From: Nemertoderma westbladi
Lineage: Eukaryota; Animalia; Xenacoelomorpha
Direction of reading: 5' to 3'
Length of the DNA stretch: 64,000 nt
Assembly: GCA_032718475.1 (NCBI GenBank)
Contig: JAUCBJ010006781.1
Span: 94,371-158,370 of the forward strand
In this document: positions 4,753 through 59,929 of the stretch, piece after piece
How positions within the stretch are numbered: the first letter of the stretch is position 1
Layout: the number at the start of each line of letters is the position of its first letter
Made by a program: the position numbers and the translations under genes
The notes under the pieces: generated by a model
The model's input: the letters and a program-made list of their open reading frames with translations, nothing else
Database searches by the model: none
Told to the model about the DNA's origin: nothing

Positions 4753-4825
4753 TATCCCTGCAATTCCGCTGTATTTTGAACGTCATTATCTATCTCTATC
4801 TATCGTAATCAACTTTATCTTCCCT

Positions 4826-12878: not shown

Positions 12879-13023
12879 TTATTTGGTTGATATGTCTCCC
12901 CTGACCACATCCGTCGGTGCATTGTATTGTAACCATGACAACTGCATTCCTCTCTTGAACTGCTCGAAGAGAACAAACATACAAATATTCCAGGTCCCCA
13001 AACGCATAAACGACGGCATAAAC
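12879..13023 (-). CDS. Uncoupling protein (UCP2/3-like, SLC25), last coding exon
   Basis: TTTCCAG|G TTT ATG CCG; encodes (G)FMPSFMRLGTWNICMFVLFEQFKR...ISTK*, matching the UCP C-terminal helix; phase 2 agrees with the upstream exon. Confidence 0.92.
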
Positions 13024-19100: not shown

Positions 19101-19383
19101 CCTTTGTAAAACGTAAGGAGGCCGTTTTCTTTAAACATTTTCACGGTGCAGTCTATCAAACCGCGATACTGCCCGGGGGACGAATTCATGTAACGAGTTT
19201 TAATAACATCAACGGGAGACGCGACGCAAGTAGTAAACAGCCCTGCTGAGAAAGCCGAGACGAAATGGCAGGGAAAGTTATCCGACATGAGTTTCCGCTT
19301 CAGAATGGCCTCCTTTACGAGATCGTAACACACCAATTCGCAGCAGTTAACAACAGCGTTACGGGCCATATTGGGTGTCGTAC
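19101..19383 (-). CDS. UCP-like internal exon
   Basis: TTACAG|GT ACG ACA CCC; encodes (G)[24 protein letters not shown]...[14 protein letters not shown]...FYKG; donor GG|GTCAGT; 283 nt, phase 1 to phase 2. Confidence 0.95.
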
Positions 19384-22300: not shown

Positions 22301-25300
22301 CATGTGTGTCGTACCTGTAACAATTACCAAAATAGTTACCATGTGTGTCGTACCTGTAATAATTACCAAAATAATTACCATGTGTGTCGTACCTGTAACA
22401 ATTACCAAAATAGTTACCATGTGTGTCGTACCTGTAATAAATACCAAAATAGTTACCATGTGTGACGTACCTGTAATAAATACCAAAATAATTACCATGT
22501 GTGTCGTACCTGTAACAATTACCAAAATAGTTATCATGTGTGTCGTACCTGTAATAATTACCAAAATAGTTACCATGTGTGTCGAACCTGTAACAATTAC
22601 CAAAATAGTTACCATGTGTGTCGTACCTGTAATAATTACCAAAATAGTTACCATGTGTGTCGTACCTGTAATAATTACCAAAATAGTTACCATGTGTGTC
22701 GTACCTGTAACAATTACCAAAATAGTTACCATGTGTGTCGTACCTGTAACAATTACCAAAATAGTTACCATGTGTGTCGTACCTGTAATAATTACCAAAA
22801 TAGTTACCATGTGTGTCGTACCTGTAACAATTACCAAAATAGTTACCATGTGTGTCGTACCTGTAATAATTACCAAAATAGTTACCATGTGTGTCGTACC
22901 TGTAATAATTACCAAAATAGTTACCATGTGTGTCGTACCTGTAATAATTACCAAAATAGTTACCATGTGTGTCGTACCTGTAATAAATACCAAAATAATT
23001 ACCATGTGTGTCGTACCTGTAACAATTACCAAAATAGTTATCATGTGTGTCGTACCTGTAATAATTACCAAAATAGTTACCATGTGTGTCGAACCTGTAA
23101 CAATTACCAAAATAGTTACCATGTGTGTCGTACCTGTAATAATTACCAAAATAGTTACCATGTGTGTCGTACCTGTAATAATTACCAAAATAGTTACCAT
23201 GTGTGTCGTACCTGTAACAATTACCAAAATAGTTACCATGTGTGTCGTACCTGTAATAATTACCAAAATAGTTACCATGTGTGTCGTACCTGTAATAAAT
23301 ACCAAAATAATTACCATGTGTGTCGTACCTGTAACAATTACCAAAATAGTTACCATGTGTGTCGTACCTGTAATAATTACCAAAATAATTACCATGTGTG
23401 TCGTACCTGTAACAATTACCAAAATAGTTACCATGTGTGTCGTACCTGTAATAATTACCAAAATAGTTACCATGTGTGTCGTACCTGTAACAATTACCAA
23501 AATAGTTACCATGTGTGTCGTACCTGTAATAATTACCAAAATAGTTACCATGTGTGTCGTACCTGTAATAATTACCAAAATAGTTACCATGTGTGTCGTA
23601 CCTGTAACAATTACCAAAATAGTTACCATGTGTGTCGTACCTGTAATAATTACCAAAATAGTTACCATGTGTGTCGTACCTGTAATAATTACCAAAATAA
23701 TTACCATGTGTGTCGTACCTGTAACAATTACCAAAATAGTTACCATGTGTGTCGTACCTGTAATAATTACCAAAATAGTTACCATGTGTGTCGTACCTGT
23801 AACAATTACCAAAATAGTTACCATGTGTGTCGTACCTGTAATAATTACCAAAATAGTTACCATGTGTGTCGTACCTGTAATAAATACCAAAATAATTACC
23901 ATGTGTGTCGTACCTGTAACAATTACCAAAATAGTTACCATGTGTGTCGTACCTGTAATAATTACCAAAATAGTTACCATGTGTGTCGTACCTGTAATAA
24001 ATACCAAAATAATTACCATGTGTGTCGTACCTGTAACAATTACCAAAATAGTTACCATGTGTGTCGTACCTGTAATAATTACCAAAATAATTACCATGTG
24101 TGTCGTACCTGTAATAATTACCAAAATAGTTACCATGTGTGTCGTACCTGTAATAATTACCAAAATAGTTACCATGTGTGTCGTACCTGTAACAATTACC
24201 AAAATAGTTACCATGTGTGTCGTACCTGTAATAATTACCAAAATAGTTACCATGTGTGTCGTACCTGTAATAAATACCAAAATAATTACCATGTGTGTCG
24301 TACCTGTAACAATTACCAAAATAGTTACCATGTGTGTCGTACCTGTAATAATTACCAAAATAATTACCATGTGTGTCGTACCTGTAACAATTACCAAAAT
24401 AGTTACCATGTGTGTCGTACCTGTAACAATTACCAAAATAGTTACCATGTGTGTCGTACCTGTAATAATTACCAAAATAGTTACCATGTGTGTCGTACCT
24501 GTAACAATTACCAAAATAGTTACCATGTGTGTCGTACCTGTAACAATTACCAAAATAGTTACCATGTGTGTCGTACCTGTAATAATTACCAAAATAGTTA
24601 CCATGTGTGTCGTACCTGTAATAAATACCAAAATAATTACCATGTGTGTCGTACCTGTAACAATTACCAAAATAGTTACCATGTGTGTCGTACCTGTAAT
24701 AATTACCAAAATAATTACCATGTGTGTCGTACCTGTAACAATTACCAAAATAGTTACCATGTGTGTCGTACCTGTAATAATTACCAAAATAGTTACCATG
24801 TGTGTTGTACCAGTAACAATTACCAAAATAGTTACCATGTGTGTCGTACCTGTAACAATTACCAAAATAGTTACCCTGTGTGTCGTACCTGTAATAATTA
24901 CCAAAATAATTACCATGTGTGTTGTACCAGTAACAATTACCAAAATAGTTACCATGTGTGACGTACCTGTAATAATTACCAAAATAGTTACATGTATGTC
25001 GTACCTGTAATAAATACCAAAATAGTTACATGTGTGTCGTACCTGTAATAATTACCAAAATAATTACCATGTGTGTCGTACCTGTAACAATTACCAAAAT
25101 AGTTACCATGTGTGTCGTACCTGTAACAATTACCAAAATAGTTACCATGTGTGTCGTACCTGTAATAATTACCAAAATAGTTAACATGTGTGTCGTACCT
25201 GTAACAATTACCAAAATAGTTACCATGTGTGTCGTACCTGTAACAATTACCAAAATAGTTACCATGTGTGTCGTACCTGTAACAATTACCAAAATAGTTA

Positions 25301-27675
25301 CCATGTGTGTCGTACCTGTAACAATTACCAAAATAGTTACCATGTGTGTCGTACCTGTAACAATTACCAAAATAATTACCATGTGTGTCGTACCTGTAAC
25401 AATTACCAAAATAGTTACCATGTGTGTCGTACCTGTAACAATTACCAAAATAGTTACCATGTGTGTCGTACCTGTAATAATTACCAAAATAGTTACCATG
25501 TGTGTTGTACCAGTAACAATTACCAAAATAGTTACCATGTGTGTCGTACCTGTAACAATTACCAAAATAGTTACCCTGTGTGTCGTACCTGTAATAATTA
25601 CCAAAATAGTTACATGTATGTCGTACCTGTAATAATTACCAAAATAGTTACCATGTGTGTTGTACCAGTAACAATTACCAAAATAGTTACCATGTGTGTC
25701 GTACCTGTAATAATTACCAAAATAGTTACCATGTGTGTTGTACCAGTAACAATTACCAAAATAGTTACATGTGTGACGTACCTGTAACAATTACCAAAAT
25801 AGTTACCCTGTGTGTCGTACCTGTAATAATTACCAAAATAATTACCATCTGTGTCGTACCTGTAACAATTACCAAAATAGTTACCATGTGTGTCGTACCT
25901 GTAATAATTACCAAAATAATTACCATGTGTGTCGTACCTGTAACAATTACCAAAATAGTTACCATGTGTGTCGTACCTGTAATAATTACCAAAATAGTTA
26001 CCATGTGTGTTGTACCAGTAACAATTACCAAAATAGTTACCATGTGTGTCGTACCTGTAACAATTACCAAAATAATTACCATGTGTGTCGTACCTGTAAC
26101 AATTACCAAAATAGTTACATGTGTGTCGTACCTGTAATAATTACCAAAATAATTACCATGTGTGTCGTACCTGTAACAATTACCAAAATAGTTACCATGT
26201 GTGTCGTACCTGTAACAATTACCAAAATAGTTACCCTGTGTGTCGTACCTGTAATAATTACCAAAATAATTACCATGTGTGTCGTACCTGTAACAATTAC
26301 CAAAATAATTACCATGTGTGTCGTACCTGTAACAATTACCAAAATAGTTACCATGTGTGTCGTACCTGTAACAATTACCAAAATAGTTACCCTGTGTGTC
26401 GTACCTGTAATAATTACCAAAATAATTACCATGTGTGTCGTACCTGTAACAATTACCAAAATAATTACCATGTGTGTCGTACCTGTAACAATTACCAAAA
26501 TAGTTACATGTGTGTCGTACCTGTAATAATTACCAAAATAGTTACCATGTGTGTCGTACCTGTAATAATTACCAAAATAGTTACCATGTGTGTCGTACCT
26601 GTAATAATTACCAAAATAATTACCATGTGTGTCGTACCTGTAACAATTACCAAAATAGTTACCATGTGTGTCGTACCTGTAACAATTACCAAAATAGTTA
26701 CCCTGTGTGTCGTACCTGTAATAATTACCAAAATAATTACCATGTGTGTCGTACCTGTAATAATTACCAAAATAGTTACCATGTGTGTCGTACCTGTAAT
26801 AATTACCAAAATAGTTACCATGTGTGTCGTACCTGTAATAATTACCAAAATAGTTACCATGTGTGTCGTACCTGTAATAATTACCAAAATAGTTACCATG
26901 TGTGTCGTACCTGTAATAATTACCAAAATAATTACCATGTGTGTCGTACCTGTAATAATTACCAAAATAATTACCATGTGTGTCGTACCTGTAATAATTA
27001 CCAAAATAGTTACCCTGTGTGTCGTACCTGTAATAATTACCAAAATAATTACCATGTGTGTCGTACCTGTAACAATTACCAAAATAATTACCATGTGTGT
27101 CGTACCTGTAACAATTACCAAAATAGTTACCATGTGTGTCGTACCTGTAACAATTACCAAAATAGTTACCCTGTGTGTCGTACCTGTAATAATTACCAAA
27201 ATAATTACCATGTGTGTCGTACCTGTAACAATTACCAAAATAATTACCATGTGTGTCGTACCTGTAACAATTACCAAAATAGTTACATGTGTGTCGTACC
27301 TGTAACAATTACCAAAATAGTTACCCTGTGTGTCGTACCTGTAATAATTACCAAAATAATTACCATGTGTGTCGTACCTGTAATAATTACCAAAATAGTT
27401 ACCATGTGTGTCGTACCTGTAATAATTACCAAAATAGTTACCATGTGTGTCGTACCTGTAATAATTACCAAAATAGTTACCATGTGTGTCGTACCTGTAA
27501 TAATTACCAAAATAGTTACCATGTGTGTCGTACCTGTAATAATTACCAAAATAATTACCATGTGTGTCGTACCTGTAATAATTACCAAAATAATTACCAT
27601 GTGTGTCGTACCTGTAATAATTACCAAAATAGTTACCCTGTGTGTCGTACCTGTAATAATTACCAAAATAGTTAA
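19374..27675 (-). repeat. 39-bp tandem array (about 195 copies) of the UCP acceptor junction, filling almost the whole intron
   Basis: Minus-strand unit GTACGACACACATGGTAACTATTTTGGTAATTATTACAG; the real exon begins GTACGACACCCAATATGG. Interrupted at 21406-22076. Confidence 0.97.
21406..22076 (-). mobile_element. 5'-truncated LINE (CR1/L2 group) inserted in the 39-bp array
   Basis: ORF2 C-terminal signature RRRERYIIIYTWKI...GPKLFNTIP..IR...FKKHLD..L..VPD.P; 3' tail of ATACAAGA repeats; GTACCT duplicated at 21400-21405 and 22077-22082. Confidence 0.85.
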
Positions 27676-27760
27676 TATTCATATTGTGTGGCGGACTTTT
27701 TGTACATGTATCAAAATAATTACAGAATGTCGCCGGATTATATTCTGGAACTTTACTAAC

Positions 27761-34875: not shown

Positions 34876-35418
34876 TAGGGATGTTGCGAATGTCATATTT
34901 TTAACATTCGCGGATGCAGATGCGGATGCAGATGTCTGAGGTGACATCCGCAGGGATGCGGATGTCTATTAAACATATATATTTTTGCCTGGCCTCCCTT
35001 TTACATCTAGGTTATACCAGCATTTTAATATTATATTCTAATCTTATATTAATAAACTAACAAGCGTCTAAGGTTATAGAACAGAATGGGACATAATATA
35101 ACAAAACAATAATACAACAAACATTTTTTTATATAGTTCCCGTCCAGTGTTAGTGTATTTTTAGTATTAGTGTAATTTTAAGATGAAATAAAAAAAATTC
35201 ATAAGGGAAAAAGTAATTATTATTGAAAATTTAATTGAGTTGTTGCTGGGCCTTCAGACAGGATGCTTGAATAGTGCATGTAACATCCGCATGTAACATC
35301 CGCATGTAACATCCGCATGTCACATCCGCATGCCATGGGTGCGGATGCGAAAAATCATGCGGATATCCGCGGATGCGGATATCCGCGGATGCGGATGCGG
35401 ACATTCGCCACATCCCTA
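34876..35418. mobile_element. hAT-type MITE
   Basis: TIR TAGGGATGT(T/G)GCGAATGTC; subterminal GCGGAT/ATCCGC repeats; 8-bp TSD ATGCTCAC / ATGCACAC. Confidence 0.88.
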
Positions 35419-36121
35419 ATGCACACTGACCTTTAAAATGTGATTGAGCATCAGCACTTTCTAAGGGATGGCTATTATTATTACGGCTAATATAAATCAC
35501 CTTGAGCCCAATTATATATTGAACCATTCGTGAATTAAAACATAAGACGAAATGAACACAAATATATATTGAAATATTATAAGACCCAACAACAGGCGAA
35601 TTCAATAAATTTGACAAAATCAATACTTGCATAAAATTAGGCAAACAAACTCTGAAACAAACTACTAAACTCGATATAACATTAATATTGTAGACCAGAA
35701 AATACATATCAACTCTACTGTACATAAAACACAAAGTGAGTAAATATATCATAAAAGAATACCGATAATTAATTTAGTTACGTTAATCAATAAGTTTGGT
35801 TCATTTGGATTAATAAGGGTAAACCTAGATGGATTCTACGATATGCAGTCATTTGCCGACCAATACAATGTTTCACCACATTCCACACGCGCCAATTTCA
35901 CCAATACCCGTAGGTAAGTTATACAACGATGGTGAGAGATGGCAAATCAAGTCTCGCGAAATAGTAAAACTGTTGTGGCATATGCTGTAGTTGGTGGGTT
36001 ATACATGATAGTATAAAGGAAAACGTTTTAGTTTTTGAATGTTTTCTACCATCGTTTCCTCGCGCACCTAAAACCGAAAACACTTTAATGCGATTGTTCG
36101 TATAACACGGAAAACTCAGAC

Positions 36122-36961
36122 TCACTTAGCTGCCTTATCATCTTCAACAACCTTAACATCATCGTCACCATCGTCCTTGTCCTCCTCCTTAATTTCTTTC
36201 TTGCTCTCCTCTATTGCCGCCTTAGCAGCGACGGCCTCAGCGCATTCCTCTGAGTTCTTATGGCGAATATAAGCCAGCTTGTACGAGAACACCTCCCCGC
36301 ACTTCTCGCACGTGTAAGTCGCGCGTTTTACAGGACTGACAATTTCTTCTTCATCGTCATCGTCTCTAACAACTTCTTTGTAAGTGGATCGCTTCCTACC
36401 GCCACTAACAGCCGGGGTCGTGGGGGTATTGGTGGAAGCCGAGCCGGCGTAGCCCTTCATCTCAACCAACTGCTCCTTATTGCACAACTCGAGATGTAGC
36501 ATCAAGGAATCTCGACTTGTAAAATTCCCCCTACATCGACTACACTCGTGAACCTCGCCGGGTTTAATCTTCTTCTTCTGCAGATCCATTGGTTTATAAT
36601 CTCCTTTGCGGCAATTAATAAGATGATCTCTGTAGTGGGTGCCGTCGCGGCATACCATATTGCCGCAGGATTCGCAGCACCCGAACGTGGTGCATTTGTG
36701 TTTCGGGGTAGTGGAGGAAGTCCCCGGTTGTGGACTGGGTTTCGCCGGCTCGGTGGGCACCCCTTTACATATCTTGATGTGCTCGAGGATGTGGCTTCGC
36801 GAACCTGTGCAGTCCCGGCAGAGCGGGCATACTATCTTCGCTTCATGCGAGGCCATGTTGCTCGGTTTAATGTTGGTTAACGGTGTTGCCTTGGTGACTG
36901 CAGGGGTTGGGGGGTTAGGTTTGTTGACAACGGGAATCGGTTTGCTCGCTGGTTGAGTTGG
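36122..36961 (-). CDS. C2H2/C2HC zinc-finger gene, downstream exon
   Basis: Acceptor ACTAAC-CCTCATCCATCCCCC-CAG|CCA in phase 0 with the upstream exon; fingers CPLC..HIKIC, CSRC..HLELC, CEKC..YIRH; ends at TGA 36122-36124 or splices out at AA|GTGAGT (36125). Confidence 0.8.
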   Translation of the reverse strand, partial: PTQPASKPIPVVNKPNPPTPAVTKATPLTNIKPSNMASHEAKIVCPLCRDCTGSRSHILEHIKICKGVPTEPAKPSPQPGTSSTTPKHKCTTFGCCESCGNMVCRDGTHYRDHLINCRKGDYKPMDLQKKKIKPGEVHECSRCRGNFTSRDSLMLHLELCNKEQLVEMKGYAGSASTNTPTTPAVSGGRKRSTYKEVVRDDDDEEEIVSPVKRATYTCEKCGEVFSYKLAYIRHKNSEECAEAVAAKAAIEESKKEIKEEDKDDGDDDVKVVEDDKAAK

Positions 36962-37519
36962 CTGGGGGGATGGATGAGGGTTAGTTCCGGTGTCTAGGTG
37001 AAGGAACCATTAGTTACAGTCCAACAATAAATTTATATTATTGTATCATAACAGATCTGGGGGGGGTGTGGGGGGGGGGGGGCTGTACTCTTGGCACAAA
37101 TACCAGTTGCACATAGTGCGGAAAGCCCAAATGTGAAAAAACAAGTGAAAACAAAAAGAAAAATAATAAAATAAAATAAAATAAATCTGTAATACGAAGT
37201 AAGAAAATTGTGTGAAACATTTTAATATTAAAAAATTGCAAGCTGTTTGCGTTACGATAATATTTAAATTTTTTTTCATTATTAGATATCCCCATTGCTA
37301 CGGCTGTTCTAAGTGGATTACTTTACGAGAGATAAGGATGTCGCCACATTGGGCTTCTTATAGCTATATATTGTAGAACTTGTTAGCCCTGATGATGTGA
37401 AAAACTTACATTAGATATCTCCAATGCATTATTCCCTCCAGTAACAGGCGAGCGTAGCATTCGTTCTGGTCTCATATATTAAAGAGAAACGGAAATACAT
37501 AGACATCGTTAAGTTAAGT

Positions 37520-38140
37520 GCCTGTCAGACTCTCTACCTGTCGGACTCTCTACCTGTCGGACTGTCTACCTGTCGGACTCTCTACCTGTCGGACTGTCTA
37601 CCTGTCAGTTGTCAAACTATCTACCAGTCGGAATGTCTCCCTGTCAGACTGCTATCTACCTGTCGGAATGTCTCCCTGTCAGACTGTCTACCTGTCGGAC
37701 TGTCTACCTGTCGGACTGTCTCCCTGTCAGACTGTATACCTGTCGGACTGTCTACCTGTCGGACTGTCTACCTGCCAGACTATCTATCTGTCGGACTGTC
37801 TATCGGTCACACTATCTACCTGTCACACTGTCCTCCTGTCGGACTGTCTACCTATCAGACTGTCTATCTGTTAGACCGTCTATCTATCAAACTGTCTACC
37901 TGTCACACTGTCTCCCTAAACCTCTAAAAGACTGTCCACCTGTCAGTGTTTCACTATCTACCTGTCCTATCAGACTGTCTACCTACCAGACTCTACCAGA
38001 CTGCCAACCTGTCGGACCCGTCTACCTATCCGACCGTATACCTGTCAGACTGTCTCCCTGACAGACTGCCTATCCGCCAGACTGTCTACCTGACAGACAA
38101 TCTCCCTGTCAAACTGGCTATCTGTCAGACTGTCTAACTG
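37520..38140. repeat. Degenerate 16-bp minisatellite (CTGTCTACCTGTCGGA)n inside the zinc-finger intron
   Basis: Tandem units visible directly, decaying rightwards. Confidence 0.9.
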
Positions 38141-39806
38141 TCGTCTGATATTATGTCAATATCAATCTTAATGTGTGTGAGTGGGACTGAGCACATTTAT
38201 GGAAACCGCAACGGGAATAGCGTAATGGGTAAATTTAGGGATCATTACCGCAAGTAAACAGCTGGCCAATCGAGTTATTCCGAGAGAAATAAGATAAAAA
38301 GAATCAGTACACCAAACATTCAAAATATTCTAAGCGACTGGCCTTTCTACACCAGGTCTTCTAACTGAGAGGAGATCACAAACAGATTATAGTTAATGTC
38401 TCAATTTGTTTTCAGCATTTTATCTTCAAATTGTGGAAACCATTGGGGATACCATTATAATGGTGGTTTCTACTTTGATTCGCAAATATAAATTGCCGTT
38501 AATTTTGTTTGCTTGGACATTTTGTAATTGGATAATCTGCCAAAAGTTCAATTTTGGTGAGAAAACCACACCATTTTTTTAATATTAAATTTTTTCGGTG
38601 CTACAGCTACCAACTTTAACTTCCTCTCCATATTATGCCTAATGCCTACTTACAAATTATATCCTGCTTATAGTCCTAATTGCACTACCGGTAATGTTAT
38701 TCTCATTCGAACCTCAGTGATCGAGTTAGTGGGTGTAAACACCTTCAAAGGTCAAAACAAAAGTCTACAAAACGTATAAGGCGGCTCAAACTGCAATTTA
38801 CCTTATCAATTCCAAATTAAAGCATTTTTACAAAATAAAACTTCCAGAGTGACCTTTCCGAATGAATAATAGCGTTATTCGATTCCAAATGATCCATTTA
38901 ATGGGAGGAAAGTGAAAAAAATAGAAAATGTGAAAAAATAGTAGATTTAGTATTTCTCTATATTTTGCACGAAAGAAGTCAGCAGGCTCAATTAAATTGT
39001 AATGTATTGATTGACTGAGCATGACTACCCATTATTTTCGAAAACTAATAGTTTTCTTTTGAGATTGTCTACCAGACACCCACTAAATCAATTGTCACTG
39101 TTATTGTTTCTCAAAGTTTATAAACGCCAAAGATCTGCTGTTGGGCGGAGTTCAAAGACTCTGTAGCCTGAATATAAACGCTCACAGTTAATTAGGTTAA
39201 ATAGTATTAGGAAAATGTTGGTGTTTCATAGCTCATGCACCACGTCAGAGGGACTCCTATTTTCTAAATAACAACTGCCTTTTTTCACAATACTTTTTAA
39301 GATTAACATGATTATTAGAACGTTCTCTGGAAACCCTAAAACAGTACTCTGCTAAACGATTATAATTATCTTACTAGCAAATATTCACAAACGTTATTAA
39401 TAATATAACCAAAACTACGTATGTTGTTTTTTTGCCCTATATTCCTGAGACTTTTAGCCTGACTGAATATAAGTACTGTAGTTGGTCATCACTGTCAAAA
39501 TGCAGAGTATATGGAAGTGAGAGTGGAAAGCGGAAGCTGAGCTGTTTAGCACCATTTGAAAAATAATATTTCTTAAAATTTTGTGATTTATAATTAGTTT
39601 TTAGATTTTTATTAGAAATGTATTTATTCAAAATTAAAAAAAAAAGATATATATATTTTAAGGACCATTTTTGTTACGCAAATTTTTCCTCGAATGATGA
39701 TTTTAAACTGCCAACGCAAAAATTATTATATTCTATTGTATTATAAAGACAGTTGGGTTGATTCCGGAACGGTTCCGAGCTGTTCCCACCGGAAACCGGA
39801 ACTAAC

Positions 39807-41090
39807 CCTGGGAGCGGGGGGTGGGATGTACTGGACGTCCTGGGCGGCTGGGACAATCTTGTTCTTCTGGTTCGGACAGCTCGGGAGATGCGCCATCACC
39901 TTCTCGCGGGACTCAAAGATTCCGTTGCAGAGCGGACAGACGACGTTGGCCTTCCGAGTCGCAGGGACCGACGAAACCCCGACGTTCTGGTGCATAATGA
40001 TGTGGTTGTAGTACTCGGAGTAGCTGTTGAAGTGGACGTTCTCGTCGAGACAGTAGAGCGCGACCAACTCGGCCTGGAAGCCGTGCGCCTGGATGTGCGC
40101 GAGGAACAACTTCTCCCCGGCTTCGCGGAACACGGTCCCGCACACGAAGCAGGTGAACGGGCGCGTGCAGCTGTGCACCCGCATGTGGGCGCACAATGCG
40201 CAGTTGTTCATCATCTGCAACCCACACTCGTTGCAGCGAAGGAACCCGGTCCCCGGTTTCAGATCGTTTCGCGCGAAGTGGATCGCCAGATAGTGGGCGC
40301 CCTCAAAGTAGCGGTTGCACTCCAGACAGACTCGCTTCGCTCGGTCTCGTACGTTCACGTAGACGTGGATGTCCTTGGCTTTACGGCGGAGGAAGATGTA
40401 TTTCTTCAACTTTAGTCCTTCCTTTGGTGCCATCGATTCGAGTATGAAATTGTTCATCCGGTGTTTAACCAGCGGCAGGAGGTTCGCGTTGGAGGTTGGT
40501 TGATTCGAGCCCGCCTGGGAGGTTGTAGGGCGGGTCTCGTTGCGTTGTAGGCTGGGGGGTTGGACAGGGCGAGGGTTCGACCCCGGGGGAGTGGGGCGGG
40601 TTGAGAGAGCTGGGGGAGGGCCGCGTTGCGGGGCGGGTTGTTGGCGCGCCGATGTCCCTGGCTCCGACGGGCGATATACCCCGGGAGGGGCGGTGCTGCC
40701 CGGGACCTTCTGCCACCCGCGGGTCGCCGTTTGGGCCGCCGCGGGCGGGGGCGCAGCGGTAGGCGCCGCAGGGCGTTGGGGCTGCACGACCTTTGGCTGC
40801 AGCTGGCGTTCCGTCGTGCCGCCTCGGTTAACCCCGTTCACTAACTGCGCCATCTGTTGCTGCTGTTTGAGCGCCGCTTGCTGCTGTGCGATTACCGGGT
40901 TCGGAACGGCGACGGGGGGTGGTGGGGGCGCCGGAGGTGGGCTCGGTTCCCGGAACTTCGACATTGCTCTGTCGTATGCCGCATTATACGCCTTCTTGAG
41001 TTCAACGTCATCTTTCGGAAGTCCAAAAGCAACTAACAGATCAGATATTGAATCGGCAGGGCTAGACTGCCGATCTTCAGCAATAGGCAT
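39807..41090 (-). CDS. ZNF532/ZNF592/ZNF687-like zinc-finger protein, first coding exon
   Basis: ATG at 41090 with an upstream in-frame stop; GC-rich Pro/Gln N-terminus; CLECNRYF...LAIHFAR and CNECGLQMMNNCALCAHMRVHSCTRPFTCFVCG recall the ZNF532-family fingers; donor AGG|GTTAGT. Confidence 0.82.
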
Positions 41091-42077
41091 ATTACTTCAT
41101 TTACAAATTATTAGGCTGTTACTATTAAGAATATGAGAATAGAAGATTAGTGGAGTTTTTCTAATTTGCCTGTCCAACTACTGAACTCGGTAAAGACTGA
41201 CCTATTGACAGAGAGACCTATGAATAGTGACAGTAGAAATTATGGAACAGACTCACACTGAACTGAACAATATTACAATTGCAAGCCATTAATATTACAA
41301 ACACAATATTACAAACTGAACACCCGAACAGAAGCCATACAAAATTACTACAGTGTACAAATACAGTCAACACCTGCTTAAAAACAATAGTGACAAGAAA
41401 CTTTTCGAGCCTAATCCAATGCTACTCCGGTGGTAACACAGCGTGCAGTAGTCACAGGGGAGCCACATGATAGTTTATCCGTCATCCCCGTCATCATCTA
41501 CCTGCTGGCACTTTGCGCAGACTACGTCATTTATAAGGTTCTGATCCTAGAGATCTTCAAGATCATCTAGATAGATATCCATAGAGTGATTGATGATGTC
41601 GAGGGCACCTCCTCCACAGGGTCAGGGTTACTGCAACCAGGATTGGCTATAGCACCTTGGACAGATGCAGATTGCCACACTACTGTAGTTGAGGTGTCTC
41701 TATTGCTGACTAGTATCTGGCCGTGGCCAGGATCAGGAACAGCTCTAGGGACTTTCTTCCCTATCCTGTGCTTCATGGATTCTGAACTGGAACCTCGGTC
41801 AGTCGGTGCTCCTGCAACATTTCAACGACAGTGTCATTACGTTTTGTTTAGCTTGCTTCTCATCAAGCGACCATAACCCTGAAGCTCGAAACCCATATTG
41901 AATATTCTTAGATATGGTTCTCTGCAGACCGCTCTGTAGACGTCCAAATCTCCAGGATCGCCTCCAAAGGCATGTACAACATCATTATCGGAATACGCGT
42001 CTGTTAGATCCGTTTCATATATTGCATCAGCATAGATGTTTTCAATGACTGGGAAAGCAGGAGAGTTCTTCGACTCC

Positions 42078-43161
42078 ACTATGGGTACCGGACAAGTCCC
42101 TAAAAGGTGCCACCCTGCTCCATAGCGCGGGAAATTCAAATGATTGAAAGACATGTAATTTGTGCTGGAAAGGGTGGCAGATCAGATATGCCACCAATAT
42201 TTTGGCGGTAAATTCAAATCTGTTTCAACATTGAATACATGAATAGAGTACCGGTAAGACTTATGTAATTCATTGAATCAGAGTAAATTATTTCTTATCG
42301 GTTTAATTCACTCATCCGTTATTGTTGTTGTTTTATCTATTCTGGGGCTTCGAGCAGCACGTGAACAACCAAGCTGACTTGTTAGCTAGTCTGGGACTTC
42401 GAGCAGCACGTGAACAACTAAGCTGACTGGTTAACTAGTCTGGGACTTCGATCAGCACGTGAACAACTAAGCTGACTGGTTAACTATTATACACTTATAC
42501 CTAGTATATTAATAGTAGATTACAAGTGGATAGGTGATAGAAAGGCGCAGTGAATTTATTTATTTTTGGCGGTTGATTCAAATTACAGAATTATCATATT
42601 TCCATCACAAACTGTACACAGTGTGATGCAGTATGTACGTGAGTAACGTACTAAAGGGTCAAGGAGCTAGAGCAGTAGACTTCATACTGTAAACCTCTTA
42701 CTGTAGTAGCTACTGCTACTGCATGTGCAGTAGGCCTACTGTATTAACAGTTCAGTTTAGTTGTTCACGTGCTGCTCGAAGTCCCAGACTAGTTAACCAG
42801 TCAGCTTAGTTGTTCACGTGGTGCTCGAAGTCCCAGACTAGTTAACCAGTCAGCTTAGTTGTTGACGTGCTGCTCGAAGCCCCAGAATAGATAAAACAAC
42901 AACAATAACGGATGAGTGAATTAAACCGATTAGAAATAATTTATTCTAATTCAATGAATTACATTAGTCTTACTCTAGGCCTATTCATGTACCGGTATTC
43001 AATGTTAGATTTTGAAGATTTGAATTTACCGCCAAAATATAGGTAGCAGATCTGATCTGCCACCCTTTCCAGTATAAATTACATGTCTTTCAATCATTTG
43101 AATTCCCGCGCTATGGAGCAGGGTTGGCACCTTTTAGGGACTTGTTGGGTACCGGTATAGT
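42078..43161. repeat. Long imperfect palindrome (about 400-bp arms, about 270-bp spacer), foldback-like
   Basis: 42084 GGTACC..ACAAGTCCCTAAAAGGTGCCA is mirrored by CACCTTTTAGGGACTTGT..GGTACC 43153; each arm has three 49-bp internal repeats containing CACGTG. Confidence 0.9.
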
Positions 43162-43499: not shown

Positions 43500-44908
43500 C
43501 CCGTATGCTAAGTGATTTTTTTGTGCGCCGAACGCGACGCGGCGCAGAAAAAAATGTGCGCCTGTGCAGTCGAAAACAGTGCAAAATCCGCGTGCGCAGC
43601 AGAAAAACTGCGCGAGATTGGCAGATTGGCGCGCGCAGCAGAAATTCTGCGCGAGATTGGCGCGCACAGCAGACTGGCAGAAATACTGCGCGAAATCTCC
43701 TACCACGTACCTGCCTGCCTACTGCTGTACTGGCCTAAAGCACACCAAGCAGCCAAGTAGCAAGTACAGAAGTGGGACAGTAGAAGGCTTATTATTTCAG
43801 TATTTCTTACAGTCTTATCTGTATTGTCATTACCCTGTTACCGGTAGTCAGCAGACTGCCAGGGGTAGCGGGTAGGTCTACTTACCGGTACTGACTAGGG
43901 CTCGATCGGAGCTCCGGCCTCCGGCTCCGGCTCCGGCCATTTTGGCACCTCCGGCTCCTGCTCCGGCTCCGGTAAAAATATTGCCGGAGTTAATTTTTTA
44001 ATAAAGTATTATATTTCGTGCATATTCTAATCTGAACAATTATCTACACTCTGACACTATAAGTACCGTACTGTAGTACAGCTTCAATATCAAGCATAAT
44101 ACTGCAGTATTTACCTAGTCAATGACTGACTGACTGACTGTACTGCAGTACTGGTACTGGCCAGCTGGCTGACTAGCAGACTGTTACAGATAGGCCCTAC
44201 AGCCCTACCTACTGTAAAAAATTGTTGTAAATGCTATGATTGTACACTGTACCACTGCCTGACTGCAGCCATTTACTGACTGTCATGCCAGCATAATGTA
44301 CTGCAGTACTGGTACACGTACGGTACAGCGGTAGGCTACCTACAGTACACACCTCTACCACAGTTAGACAGTCTGACAGTTAGTGAGTTAGGTACTGTAG
44401 CACTGTAGGTAATTTTTAGCCGTCAGCGTCAGGCCGTCTGTCCGTGATAAATTAATTACTTAAATGTTAAATTGAAAATTCGTAAATCTATAAATTATGA
44501 AATTAATTAGACCTACAGTACAGCAGTATGATTGATTATGAGCGATTGGCGAACGATAACCATACTTTATTTTTTTTAAATAAATAATTAATTTTTTAAA
44601 ATTTTTGAAAAACTCCGGCTCCTGCTCCGGCTCCGGCCAAATTGTCCAACTCCGGCTCCTGCTCCGGCCAAATCCCAACTCCGATCGAGCCCTAGTACTG
44701 ACTTAGTGCTGTAGTGCAAGTCTGAGCCGTGCTATCAATTTTCTGCGCCTGCGCCTGTCGCGCCGCGCTCTAAATTTTCTGCGCCTGCGCGCTGCGCGGC
44801 GCTGCGCTGCGCGGCGCTGCGCTCTCAATTTTCTGCGCCTGCTCCAAATTATGGAAAAAATTGTGCGCCGAACGCGTTCGGCGTACATGCCCTACTTAGC
44901 AGAATGGC
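43500..44908. mobile_element. GC-rich non-autonomous DNA transposon, copy 1 (with nested MITE)
   Basis: Ends CCCGTATGCTAAGT...ACTTAGCAGAATGGC; TGTAGGG duplicated at 43493-43499 and 44909-44915; near-identical to 49122-49699. Confidence 0.88.
43896..44694. mobile_element. hAT-type MITE nested in the preceding element
   Basis: TIR TAGGGCTCGATCGGAG / CTCCGATCGAGCCCTA; perfect 8-bp TSD GTACTGAC; the empty site is present in copy 2 at 49501-49508. Confidence 0.93.
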
Positions 44909-48619: not shown

Positions 48620-51600
48620 TCAGTCGGTGAGAAGTCAACAATTGGACTTCAAGTCCAATTTTGGACTCCAAAGTCCAATATTGGACTTTAGTACAATTCC
48701 AATTCCAATTCCACTGCATCCCGTATCAGTACATATATATTACATAATTACAATGCAACATTATTTTAATGATCAAATTAATTATTATATGTATTATACA
48801 ATGTTATAAACAGGGATCGCACTCGCACACGTACAGTCAGACATCAGTAGTTACTTTTTGCGGTAGTGGTATAGCTTTGCCGTAGCCTTACTGCCTTAGC
48901 GGTGTATACCGCGGTAGCGTAGTTGAATTACAGCTGTATAGTTCATTCATACCCATACTGACTGCCATACCTGTGGTATTTTCGTATGGCAAAAATAAGA
49001 TACTGTAAACTGTAACCTATTATGTTATTGAGTTAATGTTTATTGACTAATTGTTTTGATTAGGTTCACTGTGTCAAGTACAATGCACACATCTCTGCAT
49101 CTCCAACCAGACAGCAGACACCCCGTATGCTAAGTGATTTTTTTGTGCGCCGAACGCGACGCGGCGCAGAAAAAAATGTGCGCCTGCGCAGTCGAAAACA
49201 TTGCAAAATCCGCGTGCGCAGCAGAAAAACTGCGCGAGATTGGCGCGCGCAGCAGAAATTCTGCGCGAGATTGGCGCGCACAGCAGAAATACTGCGCGAA
49301 ATCTCCTACCACGTACCTGCCTGCTTACCACCTACTGCCAGACTGCTGTCAGGCTGTACTGGCCTAAAGCACACCAAGCAGCCAAGTAGCAAGTAGGAGG
49401 CTTATTATTTCAGTATTTCTTACAGTCTTATCTGTATTGTCATTACCCTGTTACCGGTAGTCGGCAGACTGCCAGGGGTAGCGGGTAGGTCTACTTACCG
49501 GTACTGACTTAGTGCTGTAATGCAAGTCTGAGCCGTGCTATCAATTTTCTGCGCCTGCGCCTGTCGCGCCGCGCTCTAAATTTTCTGCGCCTGCGCGCTG
49601 CGCGGCGCTGCGCTCTCAATTTTCTGCGCCTGCTCCAAATTCTGGAAAAAATTGTGCGCCGAACGCGTTCGGCGTACATGCCCTACTTAGCAGAATGGCC
49701 AGACACTATATAACTGATAACATTGGAGTTGGAGGTGTCTCATTCAGTCATTGGTTCCCCCAAGTTTGACACTAGAACAAAGCTGCTTCCGCTTTGCAGG
49801 ACATCGCTTTAAGCCGTGCCTGTGAGGACCAGCCAGTGCACCTCATGTAGTGAATACGCATGGTGGACAGCCCATGACTTTCTTGAGACGCATCTTTCTT
49901 ACTGTCTTACTTTCTACACTGGCCTTGAAGATGCGGATGATCTAACAAATGTCATGGGTGATAAAGGCTGTAAGAGTGTAAGGGAGTTGTGGATGTGGAG
50001 GCGCACTTTTGTCAACAAGCCGGCACAGCATTCTTAATACATAATAGGGCCTATATATATAATGCAGCTGCAATGAATCATGCCGATTGTAGTATTAGTA
50101 TGTGGTGAGGTTATAGGGCTCCTTCAATTGGTAAAGTCAAAAGTGGCCGTTTATTGTTTTAGTTAGAAAAGCCTGCCTCTCTAACCTGTTCCTTTCCCTT
50201 ATGATTATGACGTGTGTTACTTGTTACTTCTGTACTTATTATGTGGAGACCCCAACACGTTAATCAGTTACTAATCCCATTTCATTATCCTGTTATCCAG
50301 CCGTTTTATAATACACTTCCTGTTGTATGGAAACAATTAGAAGAGATGGTGGTAGTATTTCTTTCTGATAGGGCTCCCATACTGCCATAGCCTTAGACGA
50401 AATCGTAGCTTGTACTGTAGTTAGCCTTAGCAGCAGCTGCAGTTGGCTAACCTGGCATTGCTACCAGTCAGCTAGTATCCACCAAATATAATTTGTAATT
50501 AAATATTTGTTGGAGCATAATCTAATCTAGTCCTCCTAAAGACACTATAAAGTCCTGGGTACATAAGGCTGTAAGGTTAGACATAACATGAATGTAAATT
50601 GTAAACTAAACAATATGCTAAAAGTACAGTACAAAGTAGGCGTACCTAGAATGCTAGAATGTACCATTATATTCTAAGTACAGTACAGTCAGTACACTGA
50701 AGATACATAGAGAGCTGCAAAGGTAACTTTCCATAACTTAACAGCTGTCTGGCTGTCTCTCATCTGTCATGCTTCAAGTTCGATTCTCAATGTCACGTCC
50801 AAAATTGGACTTAAAGTCCAATATTGGACTTTTGTAAAAATTCAAAGCCTTATAAAAAAAGTTCCCCCTGGTGAATTTCAGGTCCCCCTGTTCAAAACTC
50901 TTATTTTTTGATATATTTTCGATTAAAGAAAAAAAATCCCGCCCGATCCAATTACCCAAGGCCCTGGAACAATTGGCTGACTCACAGATTGGACTCACAG
51001 AAGTCCAATTTTGGACTTGAACTGGAGTCGAAGTCCAATTTTGGACTCAAGTCCAATTTTTGACTTCTCACCGACTCAGTCGGTGAGAAGTCAAAAATTG
51101 GACTTCAAGTCCAATTTTAGACTTAAAGTCCAATTTTGGACTCCAAAGTCCAATATTGGACTTTAGTACAACTCCAAGTGTACCTACCCATGCTGCCATA
51201 CTGTATATCGGTATTTAAATCAAAACTGCATCCCGTATCAGTACATATATATTACATAATTACAATGCAACATTATTTTAATGATCAAATTAATTATTAT
51301 AAGTATTATAAAAGCAGGGATCGCACACATACAGTCAGACATCAGTAGTTAAGAGTTACTTTTTGCGGTAGTGGTATGGCTTTGTGGTAGCCTTACTGCC
51401 TTAATGGTGTATACCGCGGTAGCGGTAGTGGAGTTATAGCTGTATAGTTCATTCATACCCATACCTGTGGTATTTTCGTATGGCAAAAATAAGACTATCG
51501 TATGGCAAAAATAAGACTACTGTAAACTGTAACCTATTATGTTGTTGAGTTAATGTTAATGTTTATTGACTAATTGTTTTGATTAGGTTCACTGTCAGAC

Positions 51601-52025: not shown

Positions 52026-53890
52026 AGTACTGAGGACTACGTTGTTATTCAATATAAGTGGATCGGATTGGCGGATGTAGATTCACTAAATGCAAAGCCA
52101 TATTATGATAAAAAAGAAAAATATCTAGATCCACCTATGATTGTAATTGATGATGATTTTCCTGATCTCGATGCGAAGTCGGATATAACGGTTCAAAAAT
52201 GTCAACCTTCAACAAGTGTCAGTAACCTTATAACACTAAGCGACATTGCCAATGATGATACCCTGCAGCCAAATGATCGTTGAGTTGTTACCAATCAATG
52301 TTTTCGTAAACGGGGTATTATTTCTATCAAAGAGAAAAAGAAAATCGGTAATATGTACTTTCACAAGGCTTGTCTTGAAAAAGAAATCGGATTTACTTAT
52401 AATTCGTGCTACATTTTAATGAAAAATATGAAATATTTTGATAACGAAGTTGTTGACTATTTTATTGGTAAAGGTATTATTATTGCTTAAGTTAATGGAA
52501 ATAATTACCGGTAACCTAAGAATACAATGCATCCAATGCTGTAATGCTGTAATGGCCCATGGCTATGGCACTATCTCTGTAACCAGGCTGCCAGGCTGTC
52601 TTAATACTGTAATCAGGTAATGCTTACCGGTACTACTCAGCTACTAAAATATAGAAATATTTACAGCTTTAACTAACCCTAACAATACTGCAATAACGGA
52701 ATACTGGAATACACTACTGCACTACACAGCACTAATACTGTAATCTGTAATCAGGTAATAGGCCTACCAGAATACAGCAATACTGGTACTTTGCGCCTCT
52801 ACCGACTGACCAGTAAAACAAGGATAGTACTGCTGTACTGATACTGCACCGTATGCTGATTGGTTACAGTTCTTTGGTTGCCTGGCAACAAGCTTTCTGG
52901 GCAGTATTAGACTCTTTCAATTTATTTTTTTGCAGCATATAGGTAAAATTTAATGCTGATCAATTTTTTCACTGTTTTCCGTAAGGTTTATAGTGTTTTT
53001 ATAGTGTTTTCCCTATGTTTTACGGTGATTACTTAATGGGTGCTATGTGAGGAGTACATTTAGGATTGTCAATTCAGAGAAGTACATGTGTTAAATTCCC
53101 TGCTGATCAATATTTTCACTGTTTTCCGTGTGTTTTACAGTACTTTTCCTATGTTTTCCTAGTGTTTTACTGTTTTACTAGTGTTTTCCTAATTTAGAAT
53201 CATCCGCCACATACCTACCCTACAGTACCCACCTACAGTACATGTACCAGTTAGTATGTAGTTACTTTGTTTTATGTAGGCCTACCCTTTGTTATGTTGT
53301 AATATATATGGTCTTGCTTTGTATTTTACATTAGTTATCTTGACATTAGTAGTTAATTTTCATATTTATTTCATTCCTTATCCATTTTAGGCCAATACTG
53401 TAGTTTCATTTGTTACATTCTGACATATTTGTTACTTACTGTATATGTGGCGTGAAAAGTAAAACGTAGTATCAAAAAAAGGCGTTCTGTGAAAAACGTA
53501 TTTAAAGTTTTATGATAATGTTTTTTTTTCTTCTTGCAAGACCCTATTGGCTAGAAGGACAGTTTCTAACTCAAAATTTTACGAGGAATCCCAAAATTTT
53601 GATTTAAACCACGTAAACGCAATTCTTTGTTTGCAAATATCTAATGACAGACAGATTGGCAAAATGACGGACAGTCAGACAGGCGGAGGGTCTATATTAC
53701 GTGAAATGTGAAAACTGACATCGGAAATGAAATCACGAACCGAAAAAACCTCTATAGCAAGAATTTTAGTTAGCCTGTATTCTTTCTTAATGTTTGACAG
53801 ACAAACAGACCGGCATCGGCAGACAGAAATATGAATTTGTTGTAACTTAATGATAAAAACTATTTCAGTTGGAGTTTTACACGCCCATAT

Positions 53891-55356
53891 ACAGTTAGGT
53901 ACAATGGCCAAATCTGGCAACCTCAAAAGTTGCCACATATGGCAATGTTTATTGCCAAATCTGGCAACTTTTGGTTTTTCTAATTTTCGCACGCCCAGAA
54001 GTAAAATCGCATTTTGGTAAATAGTTAAGTGAAAAGAGCGCGAAATTTAAATATAATTGACCGTATAAGAAAAAAATCATCGTCTGAATTCCTCTTAGCA
54101 ATAGGCCGAAATGTGCCTAAAATAATTATTGCCATTTTTGGCAACCATTAGAATTAAAGAAAAATAATGGTTGCCATTTTTGGCAACAATTATTATTGTG
54201 CAGCCCTGTCAGTAACCCTGTCATTGTAAATTACTTCAAAATTGCTTACTGCTGTACTGCTTGCTTACCCTTGTCGAGTTGTGATATATATAAACATTAG
54301 GCCTATTAGTTGATGAAATGTCAGAATGTTGGCCTATTTGATATGTTGTTAATATGTTAATGGACATATGGATGAGTCTGTAAAAGATACCGTACTGGTC
54401 AGCTGGTAGATTGGTATAGGCCCTATCTGCCTATGGTATAGGCATAAACAAATCTAAAGAATCACATGCTTCAAAGGCTGAAATGGAAATAAACGTAATA
54501 ATATTTGACAACGTCAGAACGTTAACATCACCAAAACAGCAAAAGGCAGCAAGAAGGCATTCAAGTTTGAGAAACGGCGTGACGGAAGAAAAATAGTGAC
54601 AAAATTGAGAAAGACTGATAAAACCAAAACGCGTGTTAACAAGTTAACTAAGTTAATGGATTCAACAAATTGTTTCTAGTAGGGTAGGCCCTAATCCAGT
54701 GTAATCAGCTAATGAAAAACGGGATGAAATTATTTTCATTATATGTCTGTATGTAGTCGGCTATGTACTGATGTAGGAATGGAAAGATAGATATACTGAA
54801 CTGATATAGAGTGAAGGATGATTTAGATTGCTGGGCAATTGTATCAGCATTACACAGTTACAATCTTTAACTACTAAACTATTATTGGTACAAACAACAA
54901 TCAACCACCTCCCCAAGCAGCGCCAGAGATTACTAGCAAAAATGTCAAAAAAACTATCACCAGTCAGTCTGTGTTTGTGTTATTGACTCTCATTCTCACC
55001 TCATTTATTAGGATATATTGCTGTATTGGTTAGAACTTAGAATATGCCACTACTGGCTGACTGGCTGACCGGTATAAGTATAACCTGTAACCTGGCCCTA
55101 CCCCTTTGCCTTTTTTCTAGGCCTAACATTAACATTTCAGGATCTAAGGAATGACCATACTGCCATAGAAGGACTTAATGACGTAGAACCATATGCCATA
55201 TAATCCATATTCAATGAGTTAGTTAAGTTGCCAAATATGGCAACAACGGCTTTATATAGTTGCCAAATTAGGCAATCAGAAATGTTGCCAAATTTTGCTT
55301 GGTTGCCAAATATGGCAATCACAATCATTGCCAGATTTGGCCATTGTACCTAACTG
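53891..55356. mobile_element. Non-autonomous DNA transposon with perfect 29-bp TIR
   Basis: CAGTTAGGTACAATGGCCAAATCTGGCAA ... TTGCCAGATTTGGCCATTGTACCTAACTG; subterminal TTGCCA/TGGCAA repeats; ATATA on both flanks. Confidence 0.88.
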
Positions 55357-55501
55357 ATATAATGCAACCAAGGTACCATATACCAAGGTACCGGTACTGC
55401 AGTACTGCCGGCTACTGCAGTAGTGAGTTGAAACTCTGTAATTATCAGATTAATGTAGTTGGTTCGATTTAGTAGTACGATAGAGCTTGTTGTTGTTGCG
55501 A

Positions 55502-55537
55502 ACCCTGAGGATGCCCCGAGGGGCGAAATTAATTGGT
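55502..55537 (+). ncRNA. Minimal type I hammerhead ribozyme motif (Penelope-like element type)
   Basis: ACC-CTGAGGA-T-GCCC-CGAG-GGGC-GAAA-TTAA-TT-GGT: core CUGANGA and GAAA, 4-bp stem II, palindromic stem III, UH site, stem I ACC/GGT. Confidence 0.75.
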
Positions 55538-57404
55538 AATTGAATTATATTTTATTGATATTATACATTACTGCATTATATGGGCGTGTAAAACTCCAAC
55601 TGAAATAGTTTTTATCATTAAGTTACAACAATAATATGAACGCCCTGAAGACGGCATGTCGTTATTTAAGCAATTTCAAAGAAATATGAATGGATGTCGA
55701 GTGTCGTTTTGAACTCTGAACTCGTTTTGAAGAAATTATGAGCGATTACCCTTCAGTTTTAGTAAAAATTACTCCAAAATGGAAAATTATAGAAGGTAAG
55801 TATTATATACAGTACCACTAGATAGCCCGAAAAATTCTTTTTTGGTATTAGATTTGATTTGTTTTTTGGTATTAATCATGCCTTATTATCATATCTATAC
55901 AGCAGTATATACTTAGTTATATATCTCGTTAGACTGGTGCGATTGGCTGTAGGCCTATCATATGTTACTCATTCTCCATTTAATCCATGCAATAATTAAA
56001 TATGGGGTATATCACTAATATAAAATATTATCTCCCATTCATTAAGATTATTTATATTATTATACATACAAGTAATTTTTACCTTATACAGTACAACGAA
56101 TAAAAATTCGCAACCTTGTTATATTTCATGTTATATTAATTCCAAACATGTGTTGGCTGACTATTTATTGCACTATCCACTATCCTGCCACTATCGTTTT
56201 ACAGTTTTGGTTCAGCCGTTTTCAAATTATAACAATTAATATAAAAAATCCCATGTGGGGCAGCCTCGAATCTATCAATGCTGACGTCTCCCTTAGATAC
56301 ATCCTCATAGAGAACCATTGCACTCCGGTTGAGTTGATTGACACTTTGACACTGGGGCGGATTAAGGTGTAGGTGAACTGGTTCAAACAGGGGACAATTG
56401 CATGAATACACAGCGACAAACCGGGGACGATCTACAATCCGGGGACGTCCCCGGAATGAAATGATATCAAAAATGGAATCTACGTACTAAAATTAATGGA
56501 TTCTGAAAATTTCAGATCATTTCGGCGATGTCCCCTGTTCCACCCAAACCTGTCAAATACGTGTGTAAATTTGTGTTTGAGTTTTGAAAATTTCACTGAC
56601 CCCAGTATAATGCGATAGTTTCAAGTGTCCCCTTTTCCATACAGTTAATATAACATTCCAAACACACGTTGTAGTATGGGTGCTGTTGTTCAATGTGGGG
56701 ACTGGAATCTACAATGTAATTAATATTTTGTGATCTAATTTAACATTTTGACCAATCGCAGCAGTATGTGTGGCATGGTTCAAAATGGGGACTAGGAATT
56801 CATTGTCACCTAAAAAGTAGAGATTAATTTTAAGTAAGTCGAATATATATGTCGAATGTGCCAATTTGGAAATCAAATACTTTAGTAATCGTGTTTTAAA
56901 GCAGAATGGCGCCCGAATCGCTCGAATATATAATTTTATGACAAATTTTCCTGATAAACAACTTGATATACATTTGCAATATACAATTGAAAGTGGTTCA
57001 TGAAGGACATTCATTAAGAACGTTACGTTTCGTTTTCTTGCTATAAATTGTATTACCGGATTCTGACTCAAATTCAAATTCAGTTACTTGGAAATACATC
57101 CATATCATCTTTACCAGAAACATTTTCCGAATCACTATGCCTATCAGAATTGCATAGATTGTTTTTATCTTCTTGAGAATCACCACAGACCATGTCACAG
57201 TTACTCAATGCCGGATTGCTGACATGTTGCTCACTGATGCAATCTGCAAGTTCAGCATAGTTGCTGCACCATGTAAACTCCTTAACAATATCAAGAACAT
57301 TGGTGGTTGTCAAATCTGATGTATCAAATAAGTCATGCCATAAACGCATGGTTTGCATAACATCAACAGACGCAGTTAACCTTGCCCCCAAACCCTATCC
57401 TCCT

Positions 57405-59452: not shown

Positions 59453-59929
59453 AATATCGCTCTGTATCTCTGCTTTATTATCCAATCTTCTAGTTGCTCT
59501 GCTTCTTTTTGGGTAAGATTTGATAACTTCCGTGTTATTTCTCTTTCTTCTTCTTGTATTCAATACCTTTTCTCCTTCCTTTTCAACCCCATAAACACGT
59601 TAGCATCCATGTATTTACAATTATTTTATACATGGATTTTATTTACTATTAATACACTTTGTAAAAAGTAGCACTTTTTAGAGGTCGGCCAGAGTGTGTT
59701 TATTATCTGAACGAAGCGAGTGTTATAAAATGTCATAACGCTATAAAGTGCTTCTTTCTTATAAGTATGTTTGTAATTTTCTCCAATTATCAACTTTACA
59801 CATAGAAACTTGTTTGCACTTAACTTGAAATTGTGAATCCCAGGCATAACCAAGAAAGTTCAACTTTTTGATCCTATGAAATTTTTCTAGAACTGTACAA
59901 AGTTGATATAATTAGAGAAAAACACTTAC

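Follow-up and report, generated by a model that had tools for sequence, protein, structure and literature searches.

According to the accessible part of one source, most gained introns have no known origin (PMC3443670). Among the systems described so far, introners come closest to the case reported here. In the available text of three studies, introners form families of similar introns with inverted repeats at their ends, a carried 5′ splice site and a recruited 3′ splice site (PMC9860276, PMC12130899, PMC11282704). The 3′ site is taken from the target or the neighbouring exon, codons are added or deleted, and some families have inverted repeats without target duplications (PMC9860276). We analysed a stretch of 64,000 nucleotides of Nemertoderma westbladi (contig JAUCBJ010006781.1, positions 94,371 to 158,370 of the forward strand; hereafter the window, numbered from its first letter) and studied the intron of a zinc-finger gene on its minus strand, in which the donor and the predicted branch point lie in the two arms of an inverted repeat. 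Because introner families share its features, the anatomy of this intron has precedent; membership of such a family is not supported. The intron was probably gained, and we tentatively favour its origin from a DNA transposon.

The gene consists of an open frame that runs from 41090 through the donor, and a second frame that runs from the acceptor to the stop at 36122:

39807..41090, minus strand: coding part of exon 1; ATG at 41090, 428 codons, C2H2/C2HC fingers
36962..39806, minus strand: intron of 2845 nt, phase 0, GT..AG; joint 36961-39807 in sequencing run X4
36122..36961, minus strand: coding part of exon 2; 279 codons and the stop

The protein is assigned to the C2H2/C2HC class by weak Pfam matches, each stretch being below the cut-off. 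The ~2.1 kb of coding sequence contains no other intron, and this one interrupts a proline-rich linker. Four sequencing runs (X1 to X4) were compared with positions 36000-41300; X1 to X3 are DNA and come from two samples. In X4, a single contig (depth 657) joins 36961 to 39807 and skips 2845 nt. The skipped stretch has CT..AC ends on the plus strand, that is GT..AG on the minus strand, and the joint is in frame and in phase 0. X4 carries the label ‘DNA?’. We read X4 as RNA because the three DNA runs continue beyond 41180, 90 nt upstream of the ATG, whereas its own exon contig breaks off there, and because one of its loose ends resembles what we take to be a library adapter. The transcript start is therefore likely near 41180. 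Removal with GT..AG ends, as for a U2-type spliceosomal intron, was thus observed in one study, in a run whose kind we judge from these signs. The X4 joint places the junction where the preliminary description had put it, correct to the base and in frame, and no joint to the alternative TAG at 36994-36996 is listed in X4. The intron is real and efficiently spliced at 39806/36962. In the DNA runs both intron ends are continuous with the adjoining exons; all three runs carry the intron, and no intron-less allele was seen among them. Searches for orthologues returned generic zinc-finger arrays only (1 match in 159 candidates, and 1 in 629 in another search). The best 150 of 18375 matches were all multi-finger proteins (28-43%), and an Atlas search gave a similar picture. 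A first impression of kinship with ZNF532/592/687 found no support, since only finger-to-finger matches were seen.

The two intron ends are built from the following parts:

39795..39809, minus strand: left arm; last 3 nt of exon 1 and first 12 nt of the intron, with the donor GTTAGT
39788..39794, minus strand: 7-nt tandem duplicate of the left arm's inner end, recognised by eye
39775..39794, minus strand: inverted copy of exon 1 positions 39865-39884; 16/20, 9 in a row
39755..39767, minus strand: third, degenerate arm copy; 11/13, p = 0.005; can pair locally with the donor arm
37521..38142, no strand assigned: GTCT-rich tandem array within the intron; 16-nt unit, 38 copies; likely a later addition
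36992..37009, minus strand: inner right end, loosely complementary to the inner left end
36977..36991, minus strand: right arm, with the predicted branch point ACTAAC (36985-36980)
36962..36976, minus strand: acceptor CAG and the C-rich tract before it; continues the frame of exon 2, linker-like codons; likely former exon

As previously described, the arms at 39795-39809 and 36977-36991 are perfect reverse complements over 15 nt. The left arm occupies positions -3 to +12 relative to the donor, which begins at 39806, and the right arm stops 15 nt short of the acceptor end. The last A of ACTAAC is 20 nt from the intron end at 36962. The mirror symmetry of donor and branch point is therefore present in the sequence, the branch point itself being a prediction. 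The likeness begins and ends at the intron boundaries, and the splice sites are supplied by it or recruited next to it, as in introners. It reaches ~16 nt further inward from the perfect arms. This looser likeness, noted earlier over about 15 nt, is real but modest (anchored score 9, reached by 30 of 2000 shuffles; p = 0.015). The third arm copy sits 27 nt behind the left arm. The p values for the inner likeness, the third copy and the inverted exon piece are post hoc and uncorrected. The inner right end contains an unused acceptor-like site, with ACTAAT, pyrimidines and a TAG at 36996-36994; this TAG is 32 nt upstream of the used acceptor and out of frame with the used donor.

Both ends differ from those of other introns in the window. 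The last 20 nt before the AG contain 12 C, compared with 2, 2, 2, 4 and 5 in five other acceptors. The first 60 nt contain 33 G+C, compared with 12, 14 and 19 in three other donors. Under a codon model of the linker, the 15 nt between the right arm and exon 2 score 4.3 bits, close to the linker median of 4.8. At 1.1 bits (p = 0.2) the right arm is neutral, and the left arm and both inner parts score unlike exon. The acceptor therefore likely derives from old exon. Excising exactly the arm-to-arm stretch keeps the frame open, a 1-in-3 event. Taken as a whole, the intron is probably new in a formerly unbroken exon.

How it was gained can be explained in four ways, and the weights we give them are a matter of judgement. 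The single most likely reading, although held at somewhat less than even confidence, is that the intron is a solitary, aged relic of a non-coding terminal inverted repeat (TIR) DNA transposon inserted in the exon. Such an element would have inserted into the proline-rich linker. Its left repeat would supply the donor, three bases inside its end, and its right repeat, the mirror image, would supply ACTAAC as the branch point. For the acceptor, the spliceosome would use the first CAG it meets, which is 15 nt inside the old exon. The message would thereby gain one codon, lose five and keep its frame. The gene would stay functional and the insertion would become fixed, its ends partly held by splicing. 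The target-site copy, the inner repeats and any sister elements would decay, and the interior would acquire other repeats. We favour this origin because the perfect arms are followed by looser inner likeness and, behind the left arm, by short bidirectional motifs, among them the third arm copy; motifs in both orientations are typical of hAT-type subterminal regions. It is also suggested by the resumption of exon-like sequence at the outer edge of the right arm (4.3 versus 1.1 bits), by the abundance of inverted-repeat elements in the window, and by the unusual intron ends together with the in-frame arm-to-arm excision.

Several results weigh against a transposon. No sister copy of either arm was found in X1 to X3 at 85% or in X1 and X3 at 80%, among the pieces listed; this comparison covers contigs, in which rare forms are lost, and pieces of at least ~30 letters, so that copies sharing the 15-mer alone would escape it. 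At up to three mismatches the arm has two matches in the 64 kb window, both exact, and no third. Outside a poly-C run at 37047-37089 the arms show single-contig depth, and none of the loose ends listed falls on them; repeats in other parts of the intron, by contrast, attract further contigs (38697-38749, 39419). A pattern of the arms hit 16 loci in metagenomes, none with a partner arm at up to two mismatches, and these were treated as chance. No clean target-site duplication was found at offsets of -3 to +3 and lengths of 2-20. The best in-frame candidates are 3/4 with one mismatched terminal base and 2/2 with two mismatched terminal bases, and shuffled flanks yield an in-frame candidate of at least 75% in 33% of cases. 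A diverged 19-bp target copy (12/19, out of frame) was rejected as a chance product of C-rich sequence. No Pfam match, and hence no transposase, was found in the 6 intron frames scanned of 22 listed (the longest of the others are exons or lie within the tandem array), and Rfam gave no match over the intron up to an E value of 1. An element whose target site and sisters have decayed should be old, which is hard to reconcile with perfect outer arms, and the inverted exon 1 piece behind the left arm (p = 0.016) would not be expected from a transposon. The preliminary description had proposed gain from an Introner-like TIR element and noted that no clean target duplication is visible. The latter observation stands, and a transposon remains the leading candidate source. 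The Introner label does not hold, with no extra contig or loose end at the arms and no third match in the window; other copies, on which that label had been made to depend, are absent as far as contigs can show.

The next reading, a close rival that we nevertheless regard as rather unlikely and place ahead of the remaining two, involves no mobile element. Fold-back (template-switch) repair would have copied a cryptic exonic branch motif backwards and thereby created the donor. The right arm and the tract would originally have been plain linker codons, with ACTAAC, pyrimidines and CAG present in them by accident. Repair of a break or of a stalled fork a short way upstream would then have inserted a short inverted copy of this stretch, and because GTTAGT is the reverse complement of ACTAAC, the inverted copy would be a ready donor. 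More copied scraps would form the first 60 nt, and the interior would grow afterwards. This sequence of events predicts a single copy and a missing target duplication, both as seen. The inverted piece of exon 1 at 39775-39794 has a p value of ~0.016 in two shuffles, and none of 52 other exon windows reaches its score. The 7-nt slip duplicate is followed by six bases of which five, by eye, match the reverse complement of the six exon bases that immediately precede the arm, and the scraps behind the left arm are arranged as if the template had been read backwards. A junction of 39810 with 36991 would keep the frame by arithmetic (2818 nt, which leaves the same remainder as the intron length). 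That linker codons give rise to such cryptic sites is indicated by exon 2, where a CTAAC, a C-tract and a CAG are found at 36919-36898. Near both intron ends there is a weak 55-nt direct repeat, which points to an interior added afterwards; it beats 1000 shuffles, but 2-8 of 692 background windows match or beat it, so it is a hint only. Break repair is an accepted route to new introns in the accessible parts of two sources (PMC4202315, PMC3443670). In the available passages on fold-back insertions in yeast (PMC11724301), an inner repeat that is imperfect serves as the primer, and the other break end gains a perfect outer copy of 5-34 bp, with no target copy. The intron shows the same contrast between perfect outer and imperfect inner repeats.

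A local repair origin nevertheless encounters several difficulties. The right arm, at 1.1 bits, falls below the tenth percentile of the linker (1.3, determined in-sample), and 20% of random 15-mers with a fixed ACTAAC score as well. The right flank has no templated match (p = 0.27 with the arm, 0.9 without it). Several steps and a later expansion of 2.7 kb are needed, and the supporting p values are post hoc and uncorrected. In a repeat-rich genome, fold-back events should also be far rarer than transposon insertions.

It is doubtful that the repeat is a coincidence in an older intron, whose common donor and consensus branch point are reverse complements by nature and whose nine remaining pairs arose by luck. 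Six of the 15 pairs do follow from GTTAGT being the reverse complement of ACTAAC. The window has 38 perfect inverted repeats of at least 15 nt with arms within 6 kb, outside masked arrays, so that the placement of the repeat on the splice signals, rather than its existence, is what is unusual. GTTAGT is the donor in two of four donors in the window, three of them placed by the carrier reading frame. A coincidence fits a single copy and a missing target duplication, and scanning many windows favours the picking of rare coincidences. In this view the acceptor may have moved by 32 nt, from the TAG at 36994 to its present place in what was exon; the upstream site has an ACTAAT at equal spacing, but such a shift needs a compensating donor shift to keep the frame. 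With GTTAGT and ACTAAC given, the chance of nine extra pairs at the observed placement is 2-5 x 10^-6, and by arithmetic ~10 times larger if any split of the nine is allowed; over a whole genome and a large scan, we estimate it as small, not nil. ACTAAC is present in only one of six acceptors, all but that of the zinc-finger intron being placed from reading frames. Beyond the arms themselves, a coincidence would have to account for the inner likeness (p = 0.015), for the third copy (p = 0.005) and for a first 60 nt rich in GC.

Least probable is that, whatever its origin, the repeat is kept by pairing in the pre-mRNA. Such pairing might draw the two intron ends close, or cover the donor and the branch point, either to adjust splicing or to promote a short read-through product that stops in frame at 39741. 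The arms form a predicted duplex of -26.8 kcal/mol (-41.1 when extended), all 15 pairs are in the minimum-energy fold of the 2965-nt region of intron and flanks, and the third arm copy offers a competing local hairpin over the donor, but any perfect 15-bp repeat folds so, the fold says nothing of function, and the local hairpin is no better than shuffles (z = -0.56). A further run of unknown kind, X5, has a 565-nt contig that crosses the donor and ends at 39755, whereas X4 lists the spliced joint only. X5 comes from the sample of X2/X3, and read-through RNA and GC-biased DNA fit it equally. Most of the intron is uncovered in X4 and X5, and exon 2 is also uncovered in X5; these gaps were not used as evidence. 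Among X1 to X3 there is no difference within the arms, with only 13 differing places in 5.3 kb.

In the region 39755-39950, the X5 contig crosses the donor and stops at the end of the third arm copy; the in-frame stop codon is at 39741 and AATAAA signals are present near 39610-39630, so that a short form of the transcript is conceivable.

The present evidence comes from one locus, and its implications depend on the origin of the intron. A GTTAGT donor read backwards is a consensus branch point, and one inverted repeat can thus give two of the three splice signals. If the transposon origin is correct, the intron represents a single gain with an unusual division of labour, of a kind that family-based surveys miss. 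If fold-back repair created it, it would be the inverted counterpart of intron gain by tandem duplication and could occur in any lineage with GTTAGT donors. An excess of singleton introns whose donor mirrors the branch region would then be expected where such donors are common.

The window contains other genes and repeats:

4825-5237, strand not given: array before the last exon of a choline-transporter-like gene; 71-nt unit, 6 copies, unit includes the acceptor AG and nearby bases
13017-14895, minus strand: array in a carrier gene intron; 29-nt unit, 65 copies, unit includes the acceptor AG and nearby bases
19375-27674, minus strand: array in a carrier gene intron; 39-nt unit, 214 copies, unit includes the acceptor AG and nearby bases
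34876-35418, strand not given: hAT-type miniature element with TAGGG ends
43896-44694, strand not given: hAT-type miniature element with TAGGG ends, within a larger repeat that recurs near 49100-49700

The mitochondrial-carrier gene with the arrays is uncoupling-protein-like. All three arrays stand at the ends of their introns, and with hundreds of near-identical acceptors in them one may ask how the correct one is selected. One of its introns encloses a 922-codon frame at 16032-18800 on the minus strand. This frame encodes a 19-residue repeat and a Ulp1 protease domain (PF02902, E = 1.7e-5), and it is possibly of mobile-element origin. A GTTAGT at 19026 was considered as a carrier donor and rejected in favour of 19100 (GTCAGT), where the reading frame places the donor. 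The last exon of the choline-transporter-like gene (5232-7103, plus strand) is unbroken over 623 codons; the best named matches of its protein are hemichordate and amphioxus proteins (46-48%). Vertebrate relatives have many introns, and the unbroken exon hints at wide intron loss in the lineage. The element at 42092-43145 consists almost wholly of long inverted arms with internal 49-nt repeats, and matching bases extend outside the listed arms. At 53837-55631, inverted repeats are nested, 55 nt perfect with 29 nt perfect just inside, and this is likely one element inside another. On the minus strand at 57100-59610, a frame with an ATG near 59610 continues into a tandem array of 62 copies of a 33-nt unit, each of 11 codons, and possibly encodes a repeat protein.

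Comparison with transposon families narrows the kind of element that could have given rise to the intron. hAT elements end in YAG and have an 8-bp target duplication. The two TAGGG elements in the window have end matches of 14-15/15 and target copies of 7/8 and 8/8, and a third listed pair reaches 4. The left end of the intron, CAGGG, is similar to theirs, and short motifs are repeated behind the end in both. This likeness had been pointed out in the preliminary description, but it breaks down at the target site, which is 4/8 by eye (below the 60% print limit), and at the right end, which is GAGGG; with CAG on the left and GAG on the right, rather than YAG on both, membership was rejected. A GTTAGT donor had also been pointed out at 27760. 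It is indeed a donor (at 27759), of an ordinary mitochondrial-carrier intron that has no mirror arm; GTTAGT is therefore a normal donor here and gives no support for a family. Sola2 elements end in GRG. The intron has one GAG end and a C-rich, in-frame target of 3/4, which is expected by chance in 33% of cases. In the available text, Sola2-type elements have a 4-bp target duplication that is AT-rich in described cases (PMC3627910). Non-autonomous Helentron/DINE-1 elements, as presented in the accessible part of their description, are alike in having a subterminal inverted repeat of 12-15 bp, a partial third copy, an internal tandem repeat and no target duplication, but their third copy is 3-22 nt from the arm instead of 27 nt (PMC4067079). 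Membership was rejected: neither orientation has a 3′ stem-loop (z = 0.10 and 0.37 versus shuffles), and the flanks are C-rich, not T-rich.

The repair systems and the introners each share part of the picture. Gain by break repair in Daphnia (PMC4202315) and the yeast fold-backs (PMC11724301) resemble this locus in the available passages, having a single copy, local scraps and no family. The accessible Daphnia text describes direct repeats and does not contain the word ‘inverted’, and the yeast passages are unrelated to introns. In titles and openings of the literature, a coverage that leaves out most subscription papers, we found no account of a donor as the mirror of a branch point. The word ‘branchpoint’ is absent from the available text of one introner survey, and ‘branch’ from that of another; their family lists are in supplements outside those texts. 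Whereas introners, as far as these texts go, are families of similar introns, no second copy was seen here, and in the zinc-finger intron the partner of the donor within the repeat is the branch point, not the acceptor. The stwintrons and sister introns of Hypoxylaceae also have terminal inverted repeats and no target duplication. In the available part of that study they are short and multi-copy, with repeats of 45-55 nt that are ~73% identical, and their reacting nucleotides are mostly unpaired (PMC8469720). In contrast, the zinc-finger gene has one long intron, with its donor and predicted branch point inside a perfect helix.

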